From Escherichia coli (lineage in GTDB: Bacteria > Pseudomonadota > Gammaproteobacteria > Enterobacterales > Enterobacteriaceae), in assembly GCF_003334765.1 (NCBI RefSeq), contig NZ_QOWT01000035.1: a stretch of DNA of 40,549 nt; one strand, written 5' to 3'. Each line of letters opens with the position of its first letter. Position 1 is the first letter of the stretch. The notes under the pieces were generated by a model. The model was not told the origin of the DNA. It made no database searches and saw only the letters and a list, made by a program, of their open reading frames with translations. Below are positions 1,924-39,910 of this stretch, one piece after another. A program made the position numbers and the translations under genes.

Positions 1924-3243
1924 ATGGATATCTGCTCCCGAAACAAGAAATTAACGATTAGAAGACCAGCGATACTAGTTGCACTGGCACTTTTACTGTG
2001 TAGTTGTAAAAGCACGCCTCCAGAGTCCATGGTGACACCACCAGCAGGTTCAAAGCCACCAGCCACGACGCAACAATCGTCACAACCGATGCGTGGCATC
2101 TGGCTGGCCACGGTTTCTCGGCTCGACTGGCCACCGGTTTCCTCGGTTAACATTAGTAACCCCACCAGCCGGGCCCGTGTACAACAACAGGCGATGATCG
2201 ACAAACTGGATCATCTGCAACGTCTCGGCATAAACACGGTCTTTTTCCAGGTCAAGCCGGACGGTACCGCCCTGTGGCCATCGAAAATTTTGCCGTGGTC
2301 CGATCTTATGACCGGTAAGATTGGTGAAAATCCGGGTTACGATCCGCTGCAATTTATGCTCGACGAAGCCCACAAGCGTGGGATGAAAGTACACGCCTGG
2401 TTTAACCCCTATCGCGTATCGGTTAATACGAAGCCCAGTACTATCAGGGAACTGAATAGCACTCTGTCTCAACAACCGGCGAGCGTCTATGTGCAACACC
2501 GCGACTGGATCAGAACGTCTGGCGATCGCTTTGTCCTCGACCCGGGCATCCCTGAGGTTCAGGACTGGATCACATCAATAGTCGCAGAAGTGGTTTCCCG
2601 CTATCCCGTAGATGGCGTGCAGTTTGACGACTATTTCTATACGGAGTCACCGGGTTCACGGCTAAATGATAACGAAACGTACCGTAAATACGGAGGCGCA
2701 TTTGCGTCAAAAGCAGACTGGCGGCGCAACAATACTCAGCAGTTAATTGCAAAGGTATCGCACACCATTAAAAGCATTAAGCCGGGAGTCGAATTTGGTG
2801 TTAGCCCGGCAGGCGTGTGGCGTAACCGATCACACGATCCGCTCGGTTCCGATACCCGAGGCGCGGCAGCCTATGACGAATCCTACGCTGACACCCGTCG
2901 ATGGGTGGAACAAGGATTGCTGGATTACATTGCTCCCCAAATTTACTGGCCGTTCTCACGGAGTGCCGCGCGTTATGACGTGTTGGCAAAATGGTGGGCG
3001 GATGTCGTTAAACCGACCAGGACCCGCCTGTATATCGGTATCGCCTTCTATAAAGTGGGTGAACCTTCAAAGATAGAGCCAGACTGGATGATTAACGGCG
3101 GCGTACCGGAACTGAAAAAGCAGCTCGATCTTAACGATGCTGTGCCCGAAATTAGCGGCACCATCTTGTTCCGTGAGGACTATCTGAATAAACCGCAGAC
3201 TCAACAAGCGGTCAGCTATCTGCAAAGTCGCTGGGGCAGTTAA
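1924..3243 (+). CDS. yddW: glycoside-hydrolase-like lipoprotein YddW (DigH), 439 aa
   Basis: 439-aa ORF with an N-terminal signal sequence ending in a Cys-containing lipobox-like motif (LALLLCSC); recognised as YddW; position between gadC and dosC as in K-12. Confidence 0.88.
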   Translation: MDICSRNKKLTIRRPAILVALALLLCSCKSTPPESMVTPPAGSKPPATTQQSSQPMRGIWLATVSRLDWPPVSSVNISNPTSRARVQQQAMIDKLDHLQRLGINTVFFQVKPDGTALWPSKILPWSDLMTGKIGENPGYDPLQFMLDEAHKRGMKVHAWFNPYRVSVNTKPSTIRELNSTLSQQPASVYVQHRDWIRTSGDRFVLDPGIPEVQDWITSIVAEVVSRYPVDGVQFDDYFYTESPGSRLNDNETYRKYGGAFASKADWRRNNTQQLIAKVSHTIKSIKPGVEFGVSPAGVWRNRSHDPLGSDTRGAAAYDESYADTRRWVEQGLLDYIAPQIYWPFSRSAARYDVLAKWWADVVKPTRTRLYIGIAFYKVGEPSKIEPDWMINGGVPELKKQLDLNDAVPEISGTILFREDYLNKPQTQQAVSYLQSRWGS

Positions 3244-3606
3244 ACTCCCATTCTTACTTTGTAACAAGCCGGTGCTTTACCCACCGGCTTGTTACCCTCT
3301 TAAACTATCCCACTAATAATCATGCTTACTTAAGTCAAATTAACCACACTTAGTTAAACAGCCATAAATCCCTAATAAAAATGTATGAATATGAAAAACC
3401 ATACGATATTCGCTGTCACCGAAAAATAATTACGATGGGCTATACTCTTCTGAAGAACAGTAGCGTAGATTGAAACTGTCCTAAATCGCTTATTTCTTTT
3501 CAGTATATCTTCATATTTCAGGAGAATATGGTGCAGTTAGTCGATCTCGCACGTTGCGTTTCATTTTGATTCCGTCTGATTTCCCAGCCTTATAAGGGTG
3601 TGAATT

Positions 3607-4989
3607 ATGGAGATGTATTTTAAAAGAATGAAAGATGAGTGGACCGGACTTGTCGAACAGGCAGATCCGCCCATTCGTGCTAAAGCCGCGGAAATTGCCG
3701 TTGCGCATGCTCATTATCTGAGTATCGAGTTTTATCGAATTGTCCGCATCGACCCGCATGCCGAAGAATTCTTGAGTAATGAACAAGTTGAGCGGCAGTT
3801 GAAGAGTGCGATGGAACGCTGGATTATTAACGTGCTTTCTGCCCAGGTTGACGATGTCGAAAGGCTAATACAAATCCAGCATACCGTCGCGGAAGTGCAT
3901 GCCCGCATAGGAATTCCGGTAGAAATTGTCGAGATGGGGTTTCGGGTGCTGAAAAAAATCCTCTATCCGGTGATCTTCTCTTCGGATTATTCCGCCGCAG
4001 AAAAACTTCAGGTCTACCATTTCTCGATTAACAGTATTGATATCGCGATGGAAGTGATGACTCGCGCGTTTACCTTTAGTGACAGTAGTGCCTCAAAGGA
4101 AGATGAAAACTATCGTATCTTCTCGTTACTGGAAAACGCCGAAGAAGAAAAAGAACGGCAAATAGCCTCAATACTTTCATGGGAAATAGATATTATCTAT
4201 AAAATCCTGCTGGATTCTGATTTAGGCAGTAGTTTGCCTTTAAGCCAGGCTGATTTTGGCCTGTGGTTTAACCATAAAGGTCGACATTATTTTAGTGGTA
4301 TTGCCGAAGTAGGCCATATCTCCCGTCTGATTCAGGATTTCGACGGTATTTTCAATCAAACCATGCGTAACACCAGAAATTTGAATAACAGAAGTCTGCG
4401 GGTGAAATTTTTATTACAGATAAGAAATACCGTATCGCAAATTATTACCTTGCTGCGTGAATTGTTTGAAGAAGTATCGCGCCACGAAGTCGGTATGGAT
4501 GTACTGACGAAATTACTTAACCGCCGTTTCCTACCGACTATCTTCAAACGCGAAATTGCCCATGCCAACCGGACCGGTACACCGCTGTCAGTGCTGATTA
4601 TTGACGTTGATAAATTCAAAGAGATCAACGATACGTGGGGCCATAACACTGGTGATGAAATTCTGCGTAAAGTCTCTCAGGCCTTTTATGACAACGTCCG
4701 CAGTAGTGATTATGTTTTCCGCTACGGGGGCGATGAATTTATCATTGTTTTGACTGAAGCTTCTGAAAACGAAACGTTACGTACCGCAGAACGTATTCGC
4801 AGTCGGGTGGAGAAAACCAAACTGAAAGCCGCAAACGGCGAAGATATTGCCCTCTCACTTTCCATCGGTGCCGCCATGTTTAATGGTCATCCTGACTATG
4901 AGCGCCTCATTCAAATAGCCGATGAAGCTCTGTATATCGCCAAAAGACGAGGTAGAAACCGTGTTGAACTCTGGAAAGCCAGTCTTTAG
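3607..4989 (+). CDS. dosC: globin-coupled diguanylate cyclase (O2 sensor), 460 aa
   Basis: 460-aa ORF; C-terminal GGDEF domain with RYGGDEF motif visible in translation; recognised as DosC (YddV). Confidence 0.93.
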   Translation: MEMYFKRMKDEWTGLVEQADPPIRAKAAEIAVAHAHYLSIEFYRIVRIDPHAEEFLSNEQVERQLKSAMERWIINVLSAQVDDVERLIQIQHTVAEVHARIGIPVEIVEMGFRVLKKILYPVIFSSDYSAAEKLQVYHFSINSIDIAMEVMTRAFTFSDSSASKEDENYRIFSLLENAEEEKERQIASILSWEIDIIYKILLDSDLGSSLPLSQADFGLWFNHKGRHYFSGIAEVGHISRLIQDFDGIFNQTMRNTRNLNNRSLRVKFLLQIRNTVSQIITLLRELFEEVSRHEVGMDVLTKLLNRRFLPTIFKREIAHANRTGTPLSVLIIDVDKFKEINDTWGHNTGDEILRKVSQAFYDNVRSSDYVFRYGGDEFIIVLTEASENETLRTAERIRSRVEKTKLKAANGEDIALSLSIGAAMFNGHPDYERLIQIADEALYIAKRRGRNRVELWKASL

Positions 4990-5013: not shown

Positions 5014-7413
5014 ATGAAGCTAACCGATGCGGATAATGCCGCCGATGGCATTTTTTTCCCCGCCCTTGAGCAAAATATGATGGGTGCGGTGTTAATTAAC
5101 GAAAATGATGAAGTGATGTTTTTCAACCCCGCCGCAGAGAAGCTCTGGGGATACAAACGTGAAGAAGTCATTGGCAATAACATTGATATGCTGATTCCGC
5201 GGGATTTGCGTCCTGCGCATCCTGAATACATTCGTCACAACCGTGAAGGCGGTAAAGCGCGTGTTGAGGGGATGAGTCGGGAGCTGCAGCTGGAGAAAAA
5301 AGACGGCAGTAAAATCTGGACCCGTTTTGCGCTATCGAAAGTGAGCGCCGAGGGGAAAGTTTATTACCTGGCGCTGGTACGGGATGCCAGCGTAGAAATG
5401 GCGCAAAAAGAACAGACCCGACAATTGATTATTGCCGTTGACCATCTCGACCGACCGGTGATTGTCCTCGATCCGGAACGCCATATTGTGCAGTGCAATC
5501 GCGCATTTACCGAAATGTTTGGTTACTGCATTAGCGAAGCCAGCGGTATGCAGCCCGATACACTCCTGAACATTCCTGAATTCCCTGCCGATAACCGCAT
5601 TCGTTTACAACAGTTGCTATGGAAAACCGCCCGCGATCAGGACGAATTTCTGCTGTTGACGCGCACCGGTGAAAAAATCTGGATTAAAGCCTCTATCAGC
5701 CCGGTTTATGACGTGCTCGCGCATCTGCAGAACCTGGTAATGACTTTCTCGGATATCACCGAAGAACGGCAGATTCGCCAGCTTGAAGGCAATATTCTCG
5801 CCGCCATGTGCAGCAGCCCGCCATTTCATGAAATGGGGGAAATCATTTGTCGTAACATCGAATCTGTACTCAACGAATCGCATGTTTCGCTGTTCGCACT
5901 GCGCAACGGGATGCCGATACACTGGGCGTCATCTTCCCACGGTGCAGAAATTCAAAATGCGCAAAGCTGGTCAGCGACCATTCGTCAGCGTGATGGCGCG
6001 CCTGCGGGGATCCTGCAAATTAAAACCTCGTCAGGAGCAGAAACCAGCGCCTTTATCGAACGCGTGGCAGATATCAGCCAGCATATGGCCGCGCTGGCGC
6101 TGGAACAGGAAAAAAGCCGTCAGCATATTGAACAACTCATCCAATTTGATCCGATGACCGGTCTGCCAAATCGCAATAACCTGCACAATTACCTCGATGA
6201 CCTGGTCGACAAAGCCGTCTCTCCCGTGGTGTATCTCATCGGTGTTGACCATATTCAGGATGTGATTGATAGCCTTGGCTATGCGTGGGCCGATCAGGCA
6301 TTGCTGGAAGTGGTCAATCGCTTTCGTGAAAAACTCAAACCGGATCAGTATCTCTGTCGTATCGAAGGTACGCAGTTTGTCCTCGTGAGCCTCGAAAACG
6401 ACGTCAGTAACATTACCCAAATCGCCGATGAGCTACGGAATGTGGTCAGCAAGCCGATAATGATTGACGATAAACCCTTCCCGCTTACCTTGAGTATTGG
6501 CATCAGCTACGACCTGGGTAAAAACCGCGATTACTTGCTCTCCACTGCTCACAATGCAATGGATTATATTCGCAAGAATGGCGGTAACGGCTGGCAGTTC
6601 TTCAGCCCGGCGATGAACGAAATGGTAAAAGAGCGTTTGGTTTTAGGCGCAGCGCTGAAAGAAGCGATTAGCAATAACCAACTGAAACTGGTTTACCAGC
6701 CGCAAATCTTCGCAGAAACGGGTGAACTGTACGGCATCGAAGCCCTTGCTCGCTGGCACGATCCCCTGCATGGTCATGTGCCCCCTTCACGGTTTATTCC
6801 TCTCGCAGAAGAGATTGGTGAAATCGAAAATATTGGGCGCTGGGTCATCGCGGAAGCTTGCCGTCAGTTAGCAGAATGGCGTAGCCAGAATATTCATATC
6901 CCGGCGTTATCCGTGAACTTGTCGGCGCTGCACTTTCGCAGTAATCAACTGCCTAATCAGGTGTCTGATGCAATGCACGCCTGGGGTATTGACGGCCACC
7001 AGCTGACGGTAGAAATCACGGAAAGCATGATGATGGAACACGATACCGAAATCTTTAAGCGCATTCAGATCCTGCGTGATATGGGCGTGGGCTTATCGGT
7101 AGATGATTTTGGTACGGGCTTTTCCGGATTATCCCGCTTAGTCAGTCTTCCGGTAACGGAAATCAAAATTGACAAAAGTTTTGTCGATCGTTGTCTGACC
7201 GAAAAACGCATCCTTGCCTTACTTGAAGCCATTACCAGCATTGGGCAAAGCCTCAATTTAACCGTCGTGGCGGAAGGCGTCGAAACCAAAGAGCAATTTG
7301 AGATGCTACGCAAGATCCACTGTCGCGTTATTCAGGGATATTTCTTTTCCCGCCCCCTACCCGCCGAAGAAATTCCAGGCTGGATGAGCAGCGTGTTACC
7401 GCTGAAAATCTGA
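5014..7413 (+). CDS. dosP: heme-PAS c-di-GMP phosphodiesterase (O2 sensor), 799 aa
   Basis: ORF track gives 4990..7413 (807 aa); the start is placed at the internal ATG (MKLTDADNAADGIFF...) to give the 799-aa length I recall for DosP. EAL motif (YGIEALARW) and a degenerate GGDEF region are visible. Start 25 nt after the dosC stop. Confidence 0.9.
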   Translation: MKLTDADNAADGIFFPALEQNMMGAVLINENDEVMFFNPAAEKLWGYKREEVIGNNIDMLIPRDLRPAHPEYIRHNREGGKARVEGMSRELQLEKKDGSKIWTRFALSKVSAEGKVYYLALVRDASVEMAQKEQTRQLIIAVDHLDRPVIVLDPERHIVQCNRAFTEMFGYCISEASGMQPDTLLNIPEFPADNRIRLQQLLWKTARDQDEFLLLTRTGEKIWIKASISPVYDVLAHLQNLVMTFSDITEERQIRQLEGNILAAMCSSPPFHEMGEIICRNIESVLNESHVSLFALRNGMPIHWASSSHGAEIQNAQSWSATIRQRDGAPAGILQIKTSSGAETSAFIERVADISQHMAALALEQEKSRQHIEQLIQFDPMTGLPNRNNLHNYLDDLVDKAVSPVVYLIGVDHIQDVIDSLGYAWADQALLEVVNRFREKLKPDQYLCRIEGTQFVLVSLENDVSNITQIADELRNVVSKPIMIDDKPFPLTLSIGISYDLGKNRDYLLSTAHNAMDYIRKNGGNGWQFFSPAMNEMVKERLVLGAALKEAISNNQLKLVYQPQIFAETGELYGIEALARWHDPLHGHVPPSRFIPLAEEIGEIENIGRWVIAEACRQLAEWRSQNIHIPALSVNLSALHFRSNQLPNQVSDAMHAWGIDGHQLTVEITESMMMEHDTEIFKRIQILRDMGVGLSVDDFGTGFSGLSRLVSLPVTEIKIDKSFVDRCLTEKRILALLEAITSIGQSLNLTVVAEGVETKEQFEMLRKIHCRVIQGYFFSRPLPAEEIPGWMSSVLPLKI

Positions 7414-7425
7414 CAAATTCCTCTC

Positions 7426-7449
7426 GCCCGCACTCGCGGGTTTTCATTT
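7426..7449 (+). terminator. rho-independent terminator downstream of dosP
   Basis: Inverted repeat CCCGC / GCGGG with short loop immediately followed by TTTTCATTT, starting 13 bp after the dosP stop. Confidence 0.65.
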
Positions 7450-7610
7450 AACGTGACACTGTCACTTAAATACTGTGATTTCAGCTACGATTCCGGGAGA
7501 TTCCTTCCTTAACTTCCCCTCTTGCACCAAAACTGCACTACGCTGCACAAATGTTGATCAAAAGTTAAAAAATATAACTTTAAGCCAGCATTCTGGCGCT
7601 TATCCCGGCA

Positions 7611-7626
7611 TGGCATGAGATCTGCA
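7611..7626 (+). promoter_or_regulatory. candidate sigma54 (-24/-12) promoter for ddpX operon
   Basis: TGGCATGAGATCTGCA matches the sigma54 consensus TGGCACG-N4-TTGCA with correct GG..GC spacing, about 45 bp upstream of the ddpX ATG; TGCAC repeats lie 65-90 bp further upstream. Confidence 0.55.
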
Positions 7627-7670
7627 TAAGCGGAAAGCGCAGCAATTTTTGTCTTATACAGGAACCGTTT

Positions 7671-18064: not shown

Positions 18065-18349
18065 ATGAAAATGGCCAATCATCCCCGCCCGGGGGACATT
18101 ATTCAGGAATCACTGGACGAACTTAATGTCAGCCTGCGCGAGTTTGCCAGAGCAATGGAAATTGCTCCCTCAACGGCAAGCCGATTGCTGACAGGAAAAG
18201 CAGCTTTGACGCCAGAAATGGCGATTAAACTTTCCGTGGTGATCGGCAGTTCGCCGCAAATGTGGCTGAATCTGCAAAACGCCTGGAGTCTGGCAGAGGC
18301 AGAAAAAACAGTGGATGTGTCGCGATTACGCCGTCTGGTTACGCAATAA
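18065..18349 (+). CDS. yddM: HigA-like XRE-family HTH protein (putative orphan antitoxin), 94 aa
   Basis: ORF track gives a 120-aa ORF from 17987; the recalled YddM starts at the internal ATG ([17 protein letters not shown]...); helix-turn-helix region ([27 protein letters not shown]) visible. Confidence 0.75.
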
Positions 18350-18737
18350 AAAAATGGCACTTTATAAAGCGCCATTTAGAACTGATGACAAACGCAACAT
18401 TGCCTGATGCGCTACGCTTATCAGGCCTACACGTTCACTGCAATCTATTGGATTTGAAGGGTTTTCATGCCGGATAAGGCGTTCACGCCGCATCCGGCAT
18501 GAACAAAGCCTACGTTGTCTACAATATAAAAATGACGCCTTTTACAGCGCCATTTGAAACTGATGACAAACGCAACATTGCCTGATGCGCTACGCTTATC
18601 AGGCCTACACGTTCACTGCAATCTATTGGATTTGAAGGGTTTTCATGCCGGATAAGGCGTTCACGCCGCATCCGGCATGAACAAAGCCTACGTTGTCTAC
18701 AATATGAAAATGGCGCCTTTTACAGCGCCATTTTCAG
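18350..18737. repeat. tandem array (~2.2 copies of a ~178-bp unit) containing REP palindromic units and terminator-like hairpins
   Basis: Directly visible: 18350-18527 and 18528-18705 are near-identical, and a third partial copy of the AAAATGGCGCC...GCGCCATTTT hairpin lies at 18706-18735. Each unit carries two REP-type palindromes (GCCTGATGCGCTACGCTTATCAGGCCTAC and GCCGGATAAGGCGTTCACGCCGCATCCGGCA). Confidence 0.9.
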
Positions 18738-36723: not shown

Positions 36724-36895
36724 CAGGCGTTTCCCTTAGTGGTTTTCTCAACTTATAACCTGGAATAGACGCCGCACCGGCTATTTTGTGCGATCGCGGA
36801 CATGCATCACGTTCGCAAATCGCCAATCCCGTTAATTTCGTTACTTATTGCGTTACGGACTACGCTTAAAAAAACCTTCTTCGCGAGGCGATACC

Positions 36896-37465
36896 ATGAG
36901 CCGATTCATCCCCATAGAATTACACCATGCCAGCCGTCTGTTAAATCATGGCCCAACGGTCTTGATCACCAGTTTCGATGAGCAATCCCAGCGGCGTAAC
37001 ATTATGGCTGCAGCCTGGTCAATGCCGGTGGAGTTTGAACCTCCACGCGTGGCGATTGTGGTAGATAAATCGACATGGACCAGGGAGTTGATTGAACATA
37101 ACGGTAAATTTGGCATCGTTATCCCGGGCGTTGCAGCAACTAACTGGACGTGGGCGGTGGGAAGTGTGTCGGGGCGTGATGAAGATAAATTTAATTGCTA
37201 TGGCATTCCGGTTGTGAGAGGCCCGGTATTTGGTTTGCCTCTGGTCGAGGAAAAATGTCTGGCGTGGATGGAGTGTCGATTGCTACCTGCGACTTCTGCG
37301 CAAGAAGAATACGACACGCTGTTTGGCGAAGTAGTATCAGCAGCGGCAGACGCACGGGTATTTGTCGAAGGCCGCTGGCAGTTTGATGATGATAAGCTCA
37401 ATACGTTGCATCATTTAGGTGCTGGGACGTTTGTTACCAGCGGCAAGCGTGTTACGGCGGGTTAA
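36896..37465 (+). CDS. yddH: flavin-reductase-like protein, 189 aa
   Basis: ORF track gives 205 aa from 36848; start placed at [11 protein letters not shown]... to give the recalled 189 aa. Confidence 0.85.
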
Positions 37466-37695
37466 GCATTCATGCTATAACCAGGTTTCTTTATCAAAGC
37501 CTCCATTTGGGGCGCGATTTCGGCATCCCAGATAGCTTGCCAAGATTCTGGTTGAATCTGCTGTAGAGCAATGCTTATCGAACTGTCTTTACTGTTCAGA
37601 TGACGAATAATAACGTCGGTAATATCTGCAGCAAGTGCTGCTTTTTGTTGTTCGTCCAGTTCACGCGGAAAACATTTAATGTCGATGTGCGGCAT
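37462..37695 (-). CDS. pptA: tautomerase (4-oxalocrotonate tautomerase family), 77 aa
   Basis: ORF track gives 90 aa from 37734; the recalled PptA starts at [16 protein letters not shown]... with the family's catalytic N-terminal Pro after Met; convergent with yddH and overlapping it by 4 nt. Confidence 0.85.
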
Positions 37696-37781
37696 GATTA
37701 CGCTCCTTTTGAAAGATGTCAGTAAAATTAACACACATTGTGAATGTCATGTGTCCGGTAAAGCGTTTATACGACAATAAT

Positions 37782-39078
37782 GCCCAGGGCAAGATTACGA
37801 AAGCCCGCTCCCCGTAAGGACTGACGCCAGGTAGTTTCTGTCCATGGCTGCTTTTCGCATCTTACGTCTTAACCCTGCCTTGAATACCTTATCATTCGTC
37901 AAAATATTAATAGCAATGTGCCGTATCCCTGAAAATAATTCTGCTGCATTTCCTCTTCTTATTTTGCAGTCGTCTTCATTCATTACCACGTCCAGACGCC
38001 AGTGCAGCTTATTCTCCACGTGCCAGTGATTTCGGATCGCTGTGGCGAATTTCTCAGCGGTTAAATCAGCAGAACTGATATAATATCTGACCGTCATTTC
38101 TGGCTCTTTCTTTTGTTCTGCTATTATGGACCGAAAGGAGACTGCCACGCATAATTTCTTCAGCCCTTTCCATTCAAACGTGAAATCAATAAGTTCATCA
38201 GGGACATCGCAAACAATATGAAGACGGATTTCTTCTCTGCCGTGACTCTTTTCACTCATTGCGTAACTGTCATGCGCTGGATTATTTAATTCTTTCAGCG
38301 GAAATTTTTCCTCAAAGGCTTTATTTAGCCGCCCCTGGTTTCCTTTTACCGCGAATAAATAATCACCTCCCTGTTTTTGTATCTTCTCTGCAATATCTTT
38401 CTGGCAACCCATCGCATCAGTTGTGATGATTTTTCCTTTAATATCCAGCATGTTAAGAAGTTCTGGGATAGCTGTAATCTCATTAGATTTCTCATCCGTC
38501 TTGATCTGTCCGATGACCAGACTGTGCATTGTTGAGAACGCACTAATGACATGAATCGCTCCCCTGCGGCGACTCTTGTCATAAGAGTGCCGGAGCGTTT
38601 TTCCATCAATTGCAATGACGTCTTTATCATCTGAAGAATGGCAGTCACGCATCCAGTTAATAAAGCACTCGTGAAATTTTGCAGGACTGATACAGGATAC
38701 AACTCTGGCAATGGTATCGTGAACAGGAATACCATTTTCAAAATCACCATATTGCTTCAAAAAATCGAGATGTGTTTCCCCAAAATCCTCTATATCTTCC
38801 CAACCTTCTGCACCAGAAATAACGGCACAAATAGTCAACAGTAGAATATCCGATAATTTATGTTCCACTTTCCAGGTTTGTCTGTAATCGGGGATAATAG
38901 AAATATGTTCCATCAATTTTTTAAGTTCCATTTTGTTCTCCTTAATTAGGTAAGGAGTATTTGATCATGTATAAGCAATAAAAAACAGCTTCAGGTAATA
39001 AGGAATATCTCAATTTTTAAACATAAAATGCGAATTATTTAGTGCAAAAAGTGAACTTTTGATGATCTTTCCCTGGCC
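37782..39078 (-). mobile_element. ISAs1-family (H-repeat, H-rpt) insertion element, about 1.3 kb
   Basis: Contains the 378-aa H-rpt transposase; imperfect terminal inverted repeats seen by eye (GCCCAGGGCAAGATTACGAAA at 37782-37802 versus the reverse complement of 39058-39078, GGCCAGGGAAAGATCATCAAA, about 16/21 identical). Boundaries are approximate. Confidence 0.6.
37795..38931 (-). CDS. ydcC: ISAs1-family transposase (H repeat-associated protein), 378 aa
   Basis: 378-aa ORF recognised as the H-rpt protein YdcC of the RhsE locus; stop codon lies inside the terminal inverted repeat. Confidence 0.9.
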
Positions 39079-39176
39079 GTTGACTCGATTGCCGTAGCTC
39101 GAACGCAAGCACTCTTATCATTCAATGCCATATTGTTCAAAATATTAAAAACATTATCTTCGCATTTTTTGCAAAT

Positions 39177-39422
39177 TTATATTTGCCCGAGTATAAATGC
39201 TCCGATATCTCTACGGATATAATTTTTGTCAGTGCAGAATTCAATTGCCAATCTAACAGCGTCTTGCCCCCCTCTTAACTGTAATACTCTGGCAGATGAA
39301 ATCCTTTTCAAGGAATTGCGATCATCAAGTAAGCGAAATAATTCATCATCATTTAGTTTCTTACATTTATTATATAAACCATACTCTTTACTTGCCTTTC
39401 TTTTCTGGTATGTATTTGACAT
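39177..39422 (-). pseudogene. truncated yibA-like HEAT-repeat protein gene (N-terminal ~80 codons only)
   Basis: Translation MSNTYQKRKASKEYGLYNKCKKLNDDELFRLLDDRNSLKRISSARVLQLRGGQDAVRLAIEFCTDKNYIRRDIGAFILGQI closely matches the N-terminus of YibA (rhsA locus) as I recall it, then stops; full-length YibA is about 280 aa. Confidence 0.65.
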
Positions 39423-39526
39423 TGCAGGAACCTCCATAAAGGCTATCTTTTTCTATCGTTTGACTGTCTGGAGTCCTCCACCTACTCTGCCATCAGCGCA
39501 CACGATGTTTGATTATCCTTACATAC

Positions 39527-39910
39527 TTATTTTCCGTGGCCAAAATTCAGAATTCTCCCATCATTTTTGCCTATTTCTATAATAAAAACCCCACCAGCAA
39601 TTTGGTCTGAGTGAATGGTACCTTCAACAACCCAACTTGTTGTTAACTCAGTGATTTCGTATGGTTTTTCTTCTTCTGCGGCATCCTGTCCATAACGATT
39701 CTTAACATATATCTCAGCTAATTCCAATGCTATAGCTTTATTTTTAACCAAATTTCTAACGGTATATTTACCTTCACTTTCATACTTGCGCATTATTTTA
39801 ATATTATTATTACACTGCGCCCATGTGTTGTATGTAAAAACAAACAAAGATACAATGACACAGTTCCTAAACAATATTTTTTTACATATTACCATGAACT
39901 CTGCAGACAT
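39527..39910 (-). CDS. ydcD: hypothetical protein, probable Rhs-tip immunity protein, 127 aa in this sequence
   Basis: AT-rich ORF overlapping the 3' end of the Rhs toxin-tip ORF by 29 nt, the typical toxin/immunity arrangement; hydrophobic N-terminus. No in-frame extension is possible upstream (stop 7 codons before the ATG). Confidence 0.7.

Follow-up and report, generated by a model that had tools for sequence, protein, structure and literature searches.

The window analysed here, a stretch of 40,549 nucleotides of Escherichia coli DNA, holds near its right end a transposable element that lies beside rhs sequence, has imperfect terminal inverted repeats and carries no obvious target-site duplication. 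The locus raises the question of how this copy came to stand between its present neighbours, and whether it arrived there by transposition.

The element, its gene and its ends

The sole long open reading frame of the region (37795..38931, minus strand) encodes an intact, full-length protein of 378 amino acids and takes up 1137 of the 1291 nt of the element (88%). In a profile search, the NCBIfam model NF033564 (ISAs1 family transposase; cut-off 70 bits) matches this protein with 417.8 bits over profile positions 1–314 of 314, and the Pfam domains DDE_Tnp_1_assoc (PF13808) and DDE_Tnp_1 (PF01609) occupy residues 8–94 and 102–343, respectively. PGAP labels near-identical copies as ‘ISAs1-like element ISEc1 family transposase’, under the gene names yhhI or ydcC. 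Over its 1291 bp, identity to the K-12 copies is 99.6% for yhhI and about 98% for ydcC. What lies here is thus ISEc1 in full length, the member of the ISAs1 family known as the H-rpt (H-repeat) of Rhs loci, in agreement with the original prediction of an ISAs1-family (H-rpt) element with a 378-aa transposase. A megablast with the interval 37782–39078 as the query matches 5343 of the 5426 complete E. coli genomes (98%), at a median of five places per genome. ISEc1/H-rpt has long been described as a part of Rhs loci, and there is nothing new about the element as such. We note that PGAP assigns part of the ydcC alleles to the ‘ISEc5 family’ and the rest to the ‘ISEc1 family’, though they are about 98% identical. 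Between the upstream inverted repeat and the transposase ATG lies a 144-nt leader, on the minus strand of which a simple scan found no match to the sigma-70 consensus.

The element had been delimited at 37782–39078. It is indeed located there, but its ends lie 3 bp further inside on each side, at 37785 and 39075 (1291 bp, minus strand, CAGGG...CCCTG), and the outer 3 bp are flanking DNA. These limits are those of the homology with the K-12 copies ydcC, yhhI and ybfL in local BLAST. The megablast matches of other copies in the 5343 genomes cover query positions 3/4 to 1293–1297 of the wider interval and, when the flanks are included in the query, homology to the RhsB locus begins at 37785 and homology to the ydcC locus ends at 39074/39075. 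In RhsC, three H-rpt copies with the same ends abut base to base in tandem. The ends are fixed because this copy-to-copy homology, the abutting tandem copies of RhsC and a copy in strain EC12 that is bracketed by a 10-bp duplication (described below) all place them there.

The inverted repeat at the 3' end of the transposase gene (IRR, 37785..37803) and the one upstream of the gene (IRL, 39057..39075) read CAGGGCAAGATTACGAAAG and CAGGGAAAGATCATCAAAA, and agree at 14 of 19 positions. Counted from the corrected ends, the match is 10/11 and 14/19, with a binomial P of about 1e-5, the ends having been fixed independently. The earlier count of 16 of 21 matching positions is reproduced exactly when 37782–37802 is set against 39058–39078, and in a repeat search of the region no inverted pair is longer than this end pair (24 nt at 75%). 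In the EC12 and ybfL copies the inverted repeats match better, at 11/11 and 16/19 positions. The TAA stop codon of the transposase gene (37795–37797) forms nucleotides 11–13 from the element end and thus lies inside the IRR, as had been proposed.

No target-site duplication brackets the element, and the original prediction had likewise seen no obvious one: in transposase orientation, the outer 10 nt next to CAGGG are AGTCAACGGC, and those next to CCCTG are GGCATTATTG. Comparison of flanks gives the same negative result for the two copies from which the window element is built, ydcC and yhhI (see below). Because neither of these parental copies has a duplication, their present flanks probably reflect a later deletion or recombination and not a simple insertion. 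In ISfinder, the ISAs1 family has CAGGG ends and target duplications ranging from 0 to 10 bp, and 10-bp duplications have been reported for IS1358. Since the range of the family includes 0, the absence of a duplication here is no bar to ISAs1 membership. A published inventory lists ISEc1 copies of 1290–1291 bp with no matching flanking repeats (PMC6963479). In the literature searched, rearrangements of ydcC/yhhI and the ends and duplications of the ISAs1 family receive passing mentions only.

Flanks and alleles from two loci

To the left of the element lies pptA (37462..37695, minus strand; named after the annotation of the identical HSP425 sequence). To the right follow, all on the minus strand, a yibA-like HEAT-repeat pseudogene (39072..39422; K-12 RhsB-locus PGAP annotation mapped onto the window, together with its translation), yhhH (39527..39910; an open reading frame assigned by Pfam to the Imm-NTF2-2 family), situated beside rhsB, and the 3' end of rhsB itself (39882..40549), which comprises 171 nt of core up to the DPLGL motif followed by a DUF4329 tip. 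The classical association of H-rpt with rhs is thus borne out, with the element placed distal to the rhsB tip and its immunity gene, in the order rhsB tip (DUF4329), yhhH (Imm-NTF2-2), HEAT pseudogene, element. The HEAT pseudogene contains an internal stop, and its C-terminus is missing at the upstream inverted repeat of the element. No remainder of the gene is found on the other side of the element in the RhsB locus. The H-rptB copy thus truncates this rhs-associated gene.

The adjoining rhs sequence had been called an Rhs remnant. The rhs sequence is there, but it is no remnant: the rhsB frame remains open as far as the final nucleotide of the window, so that the gene is cut by the contig end and not degraded, and sister contigs carry the full rhsB gene of 1411 aa. 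The window is in fact an entire draft contig (QOWT01000035.1 of GCA_003334765.1, 40549 bp), which an exact look-up of the transposase returns and which has the length of the window and 0 differences from it over the 6755 bases compared. It starts (1–102) with the last 33 codons of gadB, 99 nt inside that gene, and its other end (40379–40549) takes in 171 nt of conserved rhs core, on the upstream side of DPLGL. Each contig end falls in a paralogous repeat (gadA/gadB on one side, the rhs cores on the other), where short-read contigs break. Elsewhere in the window, secondary BLAST hits mark two overlapping stretches of about 214 nt in 18344–18733, which are 178 nt apart, about 95% alike and surround yddM, between adhP and fdnI.

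The two flanks belong to different loci. The left flank (yddH-pptA) is that of the RhsE/ydcC locus, with the gene order yddH, pptA, ydcC, yncI, ydcD, rhsE', and the right flank is that of the RhsB/yhhI locus, with the order yhhJ, yhhI, HEAT pseudogene, yhhH, rhsB. With 36800–40549 as the query, the flanks are separate in 5425 of the 5426 complete genomes and stand at one place in a single genome. In HSP425, H3 and BS74R-D, the two loci are 2.1–2.3 Mb apart (2.3 Mb in HSP425) on the same strand, such that their H-rpt copies are direct repeats. HSP425, the nearest complete relative, has the standard RhsE layout and differs from the window by one SNP in the 35.8 kb of the left flank and by none in the right flank outside the element. 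Over the 5 kb beside the element, K-12, HSP425 and the window are identical, and SNPs of the flank therefore cannot separate K-12-derived drafts from the lineage of the window. The two-locus origin of the flanks also means that the missing duplication says nothing about this copy. A comparison with strains lacking the insertion, which had been suggested as a way to find the empty site, loses its meaning here, with flanks that belong to two loci about 2 Mb apart and thus offer no single empty site.

Two further features of the ydcC side deserve mention. The H-rpt pseudogene yncI, which stands beside ydcC at RhsE (6587–7640 and 37018–38162 of two extracted loci), is a different member of the ISAs1 family and not a tandem copy of ISEc1. 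What lies upstream of the pptA-linked H-rpt differs from lineage to lineage, in drafts as well as in complete genomes.

The same division runs through the element. Its parental copies ydcC and yhhI agree at about 98% of positions, with long stretches of exact identity. The segment next to pptA (37785..37831) has the ydcC-locus (RhsE) alleles at 37815 and 37831. It is followed by 188 bp (37832..38019) that are identical in both parental copies, and within this stretch the element switches from ydcC to yhhI. Sites 38020–38102 and 38501–39059 have yhhI alleles, and sites 38257–38339, compared with yhhI in HSP425 and K-12, are of the ydcC type. All 13 informative sites of the last segment (38716..39075) have yhhI-locus (RhsB) alleles, which continue into the RhsB flank. 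Measured against the yhhI allele of CPF6 and ESY003, a type present in 16 complete genomes, the window element differs at 37815 and 37831 only, and its transposase differs from the corresponding YhhI solely at residue 373, T for A.

A comparable interior occurs in PG20180054 (NZ_CP043205.1), a K-12 derivative deposited as complete. Its ydcC and yhhI copies share one interior over 37832–38715, which is also the interior of the window element, and the SNPs linked to the flanks remain specific to each copy. Unlike PG20180054, MG1655 and the sister isolate PG20180050 have distinct ydcC and yhhI alleles. The pattern may reflect repeat homogenisation during hybrid assembly or polishing, or recurrent gene conversion. 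Three conversions in opposite directions within a laboratory strain are implausible, and a collapsed repeat node is the simpler explanation. The ydcC-side copy of PG20180054 lies at positions 41049–42339 of the extracted locus, and its altered yhhI allele is also present in J53-p1-pV-hybrid-1, which we take to be K-12-derived, and in 14 other complete genomes.

Assembly join or chromosomal rearrangement

Rather than one physical copy of the element, the window most likely shows the join, made in short-read assembly, of two resident H-rpt copies, an explanation to which we assign a probability of nearly four in five (about 0.78). One source would be H-rptE (ydcC), which adjoins pptA, and the other H-rptB (yhhI), which adjoins the HEAT pseudogene, yhhH and rhsB. 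SNPs within a k-mer of either flank would stay with that flank, the interior would be collapsed or swapped between paths, and a contig entering the repeat on one side would leave it by the wrong exit. The observations fit such a course in several respects. The flanks are non-adjacent in finished relatives, allele switches fall solely within long stretches of exact identity, and the interior is that of PG20180054. A role of yncI, whose H-rpt sequence might have looped the assembly graph and caused the mis-join, was considered and rejected: over 640 nt, yncI reaches only 67.5% identity to ISEc1, and it shares no long k-mers with the element.

The one genome labelled ‘complete’ that contains the join, Origami2-DE3 (NZ_CP084529.1), resembles concatenated contigs. 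There, the join is part of exactly the block that the window represents, with 78 nt of gadB at one end and 645 nt of rhsB at the other, and the block is placed between yjdN/phn and lnt, with truncated gene fragments at both joins. The record looks like a set of short-read contigs concatenated in arbitrary order, and the element within it is a three-way mosaic, some of whose alleles are otherwise confined to the RhsC copies ybfL and ybfD. Origami2-DE3 is presumably a K-12 derivative, and near asnB it lists more genes in its tRNA Gln/Met/Leu cluster than the cluster of K-12 probably has.

Draft genomes add further combinations of the same two alleles. A second hybrid, with its switch in the other long identical stretch (38103–38500), occurs in draft contigs with the RhsB flank. 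The reciprocal of this hybrid is also found in drafts, and some contigs carry patches of one or two SNPs of the other allele. The hybrid protein is encoded on 39 contigs and its reciprocal on 6. Such an imbalance is expected of a misassembly, because the interior of the repeat then goes to one contig, whereas a reciprocal exchange in the chromosome predicts equal numbers of both forms, and the ratio of 39 to 6 speaks against it.

Several observations pull the other way. The same junction is present in at least ten independent NCBI drafts, the sequence of the element being identical in seven of the loci compared, and a 191-kb contig runs through nikA-R, a full-length rhsB, yhhH, the element, pptA and narZ. 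A recurrent and identical junction would also fit one real ancestral event that was inherited by a clone. Moreover, paired-end assemblers should usually bridge an identical stretch of 188 bp, which counts against an assembly join. The absence of the join from 5425 complete genomes is not statistically decisive, because the roughly 40–80 hybrid contigs among public drafts would, for a real join, predict only about one joined complete genome. As a separate observation, three draft contigs with the same junction have yhhH called as 88, 106 or 130 aa instead of 127 aa. An ungapped comparison loses register at yhhH in these drafts, which suggests putative indels in or near the immunity gene.

Of the explanations that take the join as real, homologous recombination between H-rptE and H-rptB, with a crossover within 37832..38019 that fused the rhsB side to the pptA side, survives best, and we consider it unlikely. 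Given their direct orientation and their distance of about 2 Mb, one exchange between the copies would divide the chromosome in two, and a viable product requires a second one. A putative crossover between gadA and gadB would provide it by swapping two segments of roughly 40 kb while keeping one circle. The layout of the loci is favourable to such a swap, both reading rhs, H-rpt, about 40 kb and gadB or gadA in the same orientation (in K-12, gadA presumably lies about 40 kb beyond yhhI). Recombination would further account for the identity of the junction sequence in many independent drafts, the 191-kb contig included, and for the exact reciprocal (rhsE', ydcD, yncO, element, yhhJ, rbbA), which other drafts contain, switched within the same 188 bp. 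Starting from the CPF6-type yhhI allele of the 16 complete genomes, one crossover suffices to generate the window element. Against this, the join occurs in no complete genome of long-read quality, and the two reciprocal junctions are never seen in the same assembly and differ in number (39 versus 6). The other switch points and the SNP patches would need several independent double events, and K-12-derived assemblies show the same mosaics, whereas the finished MG1655 sequence does not. As for the putative second crossover, the contigs read stop at gadB, the longer hybrid contigs (103 kb and 411 kb) having been read up to gadB. If the join were nevertheless real, it would represent a swap between the terminus-proximal RhsE and the origin-proximal RhsB loci in a natural phylogroup A lineage, and H-repeats would serve as portable homology that reshuffles the chromosome, which is ‘rearrangement hot spot’ behaviour in the wild.

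A tandem duplication of the roughly 2-Mb segment from RhsE to RhsB, by unequal exchange between the direct H-rpt copies, is very improbable. The rhs (rearrangement hot spot) loci owe their name to events of this kind, and a join of rhsB side, hybrid element and pptA side fits the geometry of direct repeats. However, the duplication would span nearly half the chromosome and be unstable, which makes its identical recurrence in many isolates unlikely. It would leave the parental pptA-ydcC junction in place, so that the assembly graph would be expected to fork shortly after entering the element instead of passing through it, and it does not yield the reciprocal junction contigs that do exist. Equally hard to credit is a correct assembly of a lineage in which the pptA-side locus naturally holds a second module, namely an extra copy of yhhH and the rhsB tip at RhsE, for although the upstream side of the pptA-linked H-rpt is variable as noted above, the 191-kb contig, which extends for about another 142 kb on that side, has nikA-R before its full-length rhsB, which identifies the RhsB locus itself, and HSP425 keeps the standard arrangement at RhsE.

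An assembly join of H-rptE and H-rptB is thus the reading that we prefer, and it has practical consequences. Because the flanks of the window copy come from two loci, no insertion site, empty site or target duplication can be inferred from it. The mis-join would have reached public drafts as well as genomes labelled complete, with a homogenised H-rpt interior in at least one assembly, and conclusions drawn from such assemblies at the level of alleles or synteny near Rhs loci need long-read checking.

Mobility of the family and comparison with known systems

If the window copy is silent on its own insertion, a related copy is more informative. In EC12 (NZ_CP070229.1), an ISEc1-type copy that is 96.9% identical to the window element splits an IS200/IS605 tnpA gene between gnd and ugd. 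This copy has the same CAGGG...CCCTG ends and is bracketed by a perfect 10-bp direct repeat, GTACTACGTC, a duplication that is missing from the window copy and from both parental copies. It adjoins O-antigen genes and lies at positions 2502–3792 of the extracted locus. At the level of sequence, the 10-bp duplication is direct evidence that ISEc1-type elements have transposed, and it contrasts with the statement in the literature that H-rpt transposition has not been observed (PMC3032704). Because the open reading frame is full length and a 97% identical copy has a fresh 10-bp duplication elsewhere, the family appears to be, or recently to have been, active, and there is no sign that the window copy itself has moved. 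By analogy with the family, the transposase would bind both inverted repeats, cleave at the CAGGG ends and make staggered cuts 10 bp apart in the target, leading to insertion with a 10-bp target duplication. Another arrangement of interest is found in PKF11 (NZ_CP156706.1, 3814–6296 of the extracted locus), where a full ISEc1 copy lies beside an ISEc1 copy that is interrupted by a group II intron (ltrA). This H-rpt cluster adjoins yafV/ivy, and no annotated rhs gene is present within the 6.3 kb examined.

The window can be compared with three known systems. As in the collapse or swapping of repeats in de Bruijn graph assembly, it ends at paralogous repeats, the SNPs linked to its flanks are preserved and the interior of the repeat is homogenised. 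It departs from such misassemblies in that its join recurs in many assemblies, and the chimeric reading is itself built on assembled sequences. Like the members of the ISAs1 family (ISAs1 of Aeromonas salmonicida and IS1358 of Vibrio cholerae), the element in the window has a single DDE open reading frame and imperfect inverted repeats, and its length falls within the family range of about 1.2–1.5 kb (1291 bp for ISEc1). With ISEc1 as found in K-12 (yhhI in RhsB and ydcC in RhsE), it shares the same ends, the 378-aa open reading frame and the association with an rhs C-terminal tip and immunity module. The window is unusual solely in its pairing of flanks and in its mosaic of alleles from ydcC and yhhI; the element itself is no different from ISEc1.
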